The position numbers and the translations under genes are program-made. A stretch of 4,565 nucleotides of DNA, taken from the NCBI RefSeq assembly GCF_003334335.1, contig NZ_QOWQ01000078.1, one strand, 5' to 3'. The notes under the pieces are model-generated. The model worked only from the letters and a program-made list of their open reading frames with translations. It was not told the DNA's origin and did not search any database. Below, one piece after another: positions 4,179-4,419 of the stretch (the first letter of the stretch is position 1; every line of letters starts with the position of its first letter). This DNA is from Escherichia coli. Its GTDB lineage: Bacteria > Pseudomonadota > Gammaproteobacteria > Enterobacterales > Enterobacteriaceae.

Positions 4179-4419
4179 TATAATCCCTTGTGACGTAAAA
4201 ACTGCAAAACAAAAGTCCTACGCAGGAATTATTTACGTTTTACGAGAACCCTTCAATATGAATTAAATTACGGCATTAAAAATAAGAAAAAAGCCTGACA
4301 AATGAAGCATTTTAAAAACAGAAACATTCATATTTAAAATGTTAAATTGAATTGATATTTTAAATATGAATAATTTATTCGTTCTGACAGTACGAATAAG
4401 ATATGCCGTCAACAAATGC
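4179..4419 (-). promoter_or_regulatory. AT-rich chiA upstream regulatory region (promoter not resolved; likely H-NS-bound, silenced-type region), containing 15-bp and 8-bp inverted repeats
   Basis: About 240 bp of strongly AT-rich sequence between the tufA terminator and the chiA start; SD-like AAGGGA about 7 nt upstream of the chiA ATG. H-NS silencing of chiA in K-12 is established knowledge, not seen directly. Confidence 0.45.

Follow-up and report, generated by a model that had tools for sequence, protein, structure and literature searches.

An inverted repeat in the chiA-tufA spacer of Escherichia coli as a possible distal part of an H-NS-silenced control region

Introduction

In Escherichia coli K-12, chiA serves as a textbook case of a cryptic gene silenced by H-NS, and the same holds for the Gsp secretion system, which is thought to export its product. 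No physiological signal is known to turn on either chiA or Gsp. A link has been drawn between ChiA and gut colonization by adherent-invasive strains. According to a later report that cites Francetic 2000, chiA is repressed by H-NS and StpA, and its expression in an hns stpA mutant is as high as that obtained with BglJ (PMC3950696).

Several described classes of element resemble an inverted repeat that lies upstream of this gene. H-NS has a 10-bp high-affinity template, tCG(t/a)TA(a/t)ATt, whose central step is T-A (Lang et al. 2007), and its nucleation sites are exemplified by tCGATAAATT from the same study and by those of proU and bgl. NagC/Mlc operators, among them those of nagE-B, chb and chiP, are 23-bp quasi-palindromes whose only invariant positions are TT at -6,-5 and AA at +5,+6 (PMC4288165). 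Anti-silencers act on H-NS-repressed promoters, and this is the case for BglJ-RcsB at bgl, leuO and chiA, the last of which responded in a lacZ fusion that included the entire spacer upstream of the gene; the BglJ-RcsB box has a central wwTTCykA motif (Salscheider et al. 2014). Rho-independent terminators and backup hairpins, finally, are found after highly expressed genes.

Here we analyze a 4,565-nt stretch of DNA (hereafter the window) that holds the E. coli gspO-bfr-bfd-chiA-tufA locus, and focus on an inverted repeat in its chiA-tufA spacer, which a first-pass annotation had proposed to be either a separate regulator site or an RNA stem-loop in a chiA leader or antisense transcript. The spacer is identical to that of K-12, as are the final 542 bases of the window to K-12 MG1655.

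Results and Discussion

The repeat consists of a left arm, TTATTCGT (4375-4382, unstranded), and a right arm, ACGAATAA (4392-4399), which are 8 bp long and perfectly complementary both by the repeat finder and in the sequence itself, with a 9-nt spacer, TCTGACAGT, between them (4383-4391); the coordinates given in the first-pass annotation are exact. The CTG-A-CAG mini-palindrome that it had noticed in the loop is likewise present, and counting the inner CTG and CAG brings the symmetry around A4387 to 11 matched pairs out of 12. Extension by the repeat finder yields 17-nt arms (4370-4386 and 4388-4404) that are 82% complementary; the near-palindrome as a whole then spans 35 bp (4370-4404), pairs at 14 of 17 positions and is centered on A4387. 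Converted via the position of chiA, the equivalent of 4375-4399 in MG1655 is NC_000913.3 3470050-3470074, with its center at 3470062. The repeat is also flanked as had been described: a larger AT-rich palindrome of 46 bp (4326-4371, -105 to -150 of chiA; 20-nt arms, 90% complementary, around a 6-nt spacer) stops 4 bases before it, and the stem of the tufA terminator (4419-4446) begins 20 bases past it. The 91-nt stretch that covers both palindromes (4320-4410) folds far better as DNA than shuffled sequences do (z = -5.3).

The rarity of the structure was gauged with dinucleotide-preserving shuffles of the ~292-bp chiA-tufA spacer, which has a G+C content of 30%. Perfect repeats with arms of at least 8 and a loop of at most 12 arise in 16% of the shuffles, and the 8-bp arms are therefore not significant by themselves; a centered palindrome with 14 of 17 pairs is rarer, appearing in 0.7%. 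Five loci in the whole window carry perfect repeats of this arm and loop class, of which four are G+C-rich terminators and the studied repeat is the only other one. These figures bear in both directions on an alternative nearly as likely as the reading favored below, if likewise short of probable, according to which the palindrome would be neutral and have no function of its own, having arisen by chance or by a template-switch mutation in AT-rich acquired DNA and been carried along with the chiA cassette. The frequency of 8-bp perfect arms among the shuffles agrees with such an origin, as does a symmetry that runs through the center rather than linking two half-sites around a free spacer, whereas the rarity of the extended palindrome and its standing as the sole non-terminator perfect repeat in the window argue against it.

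The gene context as first annotated, with the tufA terminator on one side and the upstream region of chiA on the other, is correct. The chiA coding sequence occupies 1794-4178 and the partial 3' end of tufA 4470-4565, both on the minus strand, and the intrinsic tufA terminator on that same strand comprises a G+C-rich stem-loop followed by TTTTTGCATTTG, with 12 stem pairs by the terminator scan, 6 of them G-C, and a perfect 10-bp repeat at 4421-4444; the indel of the chiA cassette, described below, has its right-hand boundary here. The chiA ATG lies at 3469853 in NC_000913.3 and at what we take to be 3467875 in NC_000913.2. Set against these positions, the start site mapped by Francetic et al. 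2000, published as 5'-RACE-confirmed and as NC_000913.2 position 3467918, precedes the ATG by 43 nt and corresponds to window 4221 (minus strand). The promoter scan, which found its hexamers independently, places a -35 element (TTGAAG, 4256-4251) and a -10 element (AATAAT, 4233-4228) in front of this published start, such that the chiA promoter spans 4221-4256 on the minus strand, and an RpoS-holoenzyme SELEX peak has been reported nearby, at 3467930. With the start at 4221 the repeat extends from -154 to -178 and is centered on -166. It thus lies upstream of the chiA promoter and outside the mRNA made from it, which rules out the stem-loop in a chiA leader that the first reading had entertained; being located beyond the tufA terminator, it can enter tufA transcripts only by read-through. 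A 52-aa ORF over the repeat (4263-4421, minus strand) is implausible because of its TTG start inside the terminator and its AT-driven composition.

What is left of an RNA-level explanation, a hairpin in minus-strand tufA read-through or in a short antisense RNA, appears highly unlikely. The repeat does fold on both strands, and the promoter scan returns a plus-strand promoter-like site, TTGAAT-16-AATAAT at 4347-4374, which abuts the left arm and from which a plus-strand antisense transcript could be predicted to start. The AU-rich stem is nevertheless weak, at -5.8 kcal/mol in the 25-mer and -7.6 to -7.9 kcal/mol once flanking bases are included, and stands between the strong tufA terminator and the mapped chiA start, past the former and upstream of the latter, and searches of the whole window on both strands against Rfam, at E-values up to 1, yielded no match. 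A hairpin-forming repeat so close behind the tufA terminator recalls the Rho-independent terminators and backup hairpins of highly expressed genes; it differs from them in that only 2 of its 8 arm pairs are G-C, its energy is ~-6 kcal/mol, no T-run, and hence no U-tract, follows it on either strand, and the intrinsic terminator scan calls only the tufA terminator (4446-4419). A role as backup terminator was rejected on these grounds.

At the level of DNA we considered H-NS, for which the 11 footprinted sites of Lang et al. 2007 were turned into a weight matrix. Across the spacer this matrix scores highest at CGAATAAATT (4372-4381, minus strand), which is made up of the left arm and its flank, and the right arm scores poorly. 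At 7.4 bits and 7 of 10 template positions this is a modest match of a kind common in AT-rich DNA, inside the 5.2-11.4 bits of the footprinted sites but at the low end. The site shares with H-NS nucleation sites an AT-rich composition, a CG step and then ATAAATT, and a location upstream of an H-NS-silenced gene; it departs from them in its incomplete agreement with the template and in its palindromic layout, which is not a trait of H-NS sites. As H-NS needs no palindrome, the symmetry that is so infrequent in shuffles is not accounted for by its binding.

On this basis we tentatively favor a reading in which the repeat belongs, as DNA, to the distal AT-rich portion of the control region of the horizontally acquired chiA gene, a portion that H-NS would coat, with the left arm as a plausible nucleation point and the symmetry as incidental or a mutational by-product. 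The repeat and the neighboring 46-bp palindrome would form the distal part of a tract coated by H-NS (and StpA), the CGAATAA(ATT) arms would most plausibly act as a nucleation point of moderate affinity, and a silencing filament or bridge would spread from them to the chiA promoter. We infer that H-NS would contact the bases of the repeat and that this contact would contribute to silencing; the symmetry itself could have arisen neutrally as AT-rich sequence evolved. Overall, the repeat most likely belongs to the DNA level and is no RNA element. In favor of H-NS we count, besides the motif match, the low G+C content of the spacer and the published repression of chiA by H-NS and StpA, the position of the repeat outside both mapped transcripts together with its confinement to the chiA cassette and two IS1 insertions, both detailed below; counted against it is the level of conservation among E. 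coli alleles.

The separate regulator site proposed at first reading stands as an unlikely alternative; no known regulator motif was matched by the repeat and conservation lent it no support. As an operator of a dimeric transcription factor, the palindrome would act at a distance on chiA, either relieving or reinforcing its silencing by H-NS. A near-perfect palindrome of 25-35 bp whose CG-containing arms stand out in DNA of 30% G+C suggests such a function, as does its place upstream of a gene with no natural inducer known, and the anti-silencers introduced above provide the precedent. The more specific idea, in which a dimeric regulator bound here counteracts H-NS from -166 and in this way switches on cryptic chiA in its natural niche, seems distinctly improbable.

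The candidates for such a factor were weighed in turn. The repeat resembles NagC/Mlc operators in that it is an AT-rich quasi-palindrome of comparable length (23-25 bp), has outer arms reading TTATT/AATAA and precedes a gene related to chitin; where the operators carry the invariant TT and AA, however, it reads GT and AC around center 4387, and TT-N9-AA is absent in every register within 4370-4404. For these reasons the repeat is not a NagC/Mlc operator. The 14-bp RcsAB box TaAGaatatTCctA has no match in the window at up to 3 mismatches and was likewise rejected, and the co-silenced gspA-gspC spacer holds no palindrome or motif related to the studied repeat, which speaks against a shared operator. 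Literature searches returned no description of the palindrome and no report of a factor binding there, a further point against an operator.

A box for the activator BglJ-RcsB is extremely unlikely, although chiA is a target and a TTCykA core does lie inside the repeat. This core occurs twice in the chiA-tufA spacer. Within the repeat, cgTTCTGA (4380-4387, -159 to -166) contains the core TTCTGA (4382-4387, -161 to -166), but CG rather than ww precedes it; on the minus strand, TTTTCTTA at 4283-4290 (-62 to -69 relative to the chiA start) matches wwTTCykA in full and, judged by its letters, may be a candidate BglJ-RcsB box for chiA. In Salscheider et al. 2014, a motif predicted about 150 bp upstream of chiA, near the core inside the repeat, was mutated with no effect on BglJ-RcsB activation, no box is assigned at chiA, and the boxes that were mapped lie nearer their promoters. 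The mutated motif is probably the TTCTGA within the studied repeat, and provided that it is, the published mutagenesis largely refutes a BglJ-RcsB box here; the same result agrees with a neutral palindrome.

The repeat belongs to a segment that is variably present in the species. The end of tufA was matched in all 5426 complete E. coli genomes and the chiA upstream region in only ~3150, and ~42% of these genomes lack the chiA cassette. In the latter, bfd directly follows tufA, the break point falls at the terminator, near window 4418, and an unrelated segment stands in place of the cassette; local alignment of the chiA-less spacer to the chiA upstream region detected no homology beyond chance level (p = 0.45), which also undid a hint from multiple alignment that an ancestral tufA-bfd spacer is retained in chiA-less strains. 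It follows that the palindrome is linked to the cassette, and it was found only in chiA-carrying genomes. Where present in E. coli it occurs once per genome, and searches of plasmid and phage collections gave only chance-level matches (E-values 3 to 9), for which reasons a repeated or mobile element (REP, MITE, IS end) was rejected.

The cassette itself is a ~2.7-kb presence/absence segment between bfd and the tufA terminator (window ~1680-4417), and in the one chiA-less strain examined the gsp cluster is reduced, with only a truncated prepilin peptidase gene beside rpsJ. Near both cassette ends stands an exact 12-nt direct repeat, AAATATGAATAA, with one copy just past the chiA terminator (1712-1723) and the other just before the studied palindrome (4362-4373); the related words ATTCATAT/ATATGAAT recur at 4255-4263, overlapping the -35 element, and at 4326-4334. 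ChiA measures 794 aa in this strain and 897 aa in K-12, and the gene holds three copies of a 166-nt unit within 3309-4101, spaced 303-324 nt apart, which makes it probable that the module count varies among chiA alleles; such variation may explain why E. coli homologues show 72-76% identity to a 300-aa N-terminal query.

Comparison beyond E. coli relied on a scan in which each species was represented by a single genome and which found only two chiA loci. The first is an ordinary E. coli-type allele labeled Citrobacter, whose upstream region is matched by 559 E. coli genomes at an identity of at least 99%; relatives in protein databases are E. coli alleles throughout. The second, UBA5654, has a chiA of 74% protein identity that likewise follows tufA, and in this sole non-E. 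coli relative found the upstream region is unrelated and holds no such repeat, as expected if the palindrome is neutral and contrary to what an operator would suggest. By eye, the UBA5654 upstream region (L004 2265-2283) contains a different AT-rich palindrome, TTGATA-TTTATAT-TATCAA, which the repeat finder did not list at its set thresholds.

Within E. coli, the alignment of the intergenic region, which the first-pass annotation had suggested as a check, showed background-level variation: among eleven alleles 17 of 242 spacer positions are variable, 3 of them inside the 35 bp of the palindrome (4374 T>G, 4398 A>T and 4400 G>T), and palindrome conservation in these sequences is no better than its surroundings. 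The sampled alleles show no variation across the core (4379-4397), which is a point against neutrality, though a weak one given the ~1.3 changes expected. The perfect K-12-type 35-mer is present in 2037 genomes, and changes confined to the flanks (4374 and/or 4400) account, by subtraction, for ~590. In 520 genomes, or ~16.5% of those positive for chiA, 4398 A>T breaks the 4376-4398 pair with no compensating change; such a broken arm fits a neutral palindrome, counts against an operator and, as the pair is lost on either strand, against an RNA hairpin as well. The flanking pair 4374/4400 reads T/G in K-12, G/G in LS4 and G/T in the L003 type. Between the K-12 and L003 types the change is mirror-symmetric, with a U-G wobble swapped for G-U in plus-strand RNA; the retained wobble would suit a hairpin, whereas the G/G of LS4 would not, and the swap is one post-hoc observation with a chance expectation of ~5%, in alleles whose divergence is too low for a covariation test.

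IS1 has been inserted into the palindrome twice independently, in the natural isolates ES6 and KFu022 (window 4379-4388). In ES6 (L017 735/1501) the element lies between chiA and tufA with a 9-bp target duplication, CGTTCTGAC (4380-4388), and chiA is still annotated beside it; in KFu022 (L014 398-399) the IS1 end abuts TTCGTTCTG, after 4378. Truncated matches to the palindrome occur in five genomes in all. IS1 prefers AT-rich targets, which would fit these insertions, and the palindrome may be a local IS1 hot spot. That natural isolates carry IS1 in the repeat, with chiA still annotated in ES6, is also in keeping with a neutral palindrome.

Conclusions

The repeat at 4375-4399 is a real but ordinary palindrome in a well-known silenced promoter region, a minor feature whose function is unproven. 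The useful outcome of the analysis is a negative one: the repeat is no chiA leader structure and no NagC/Mlc, RcsAB or terminator element. It is more likely to be just one portion of the silenced AT-rich tract and hence of little practical value; were it a genuine operator after all, it would open a way to the missing regulator of chiA.
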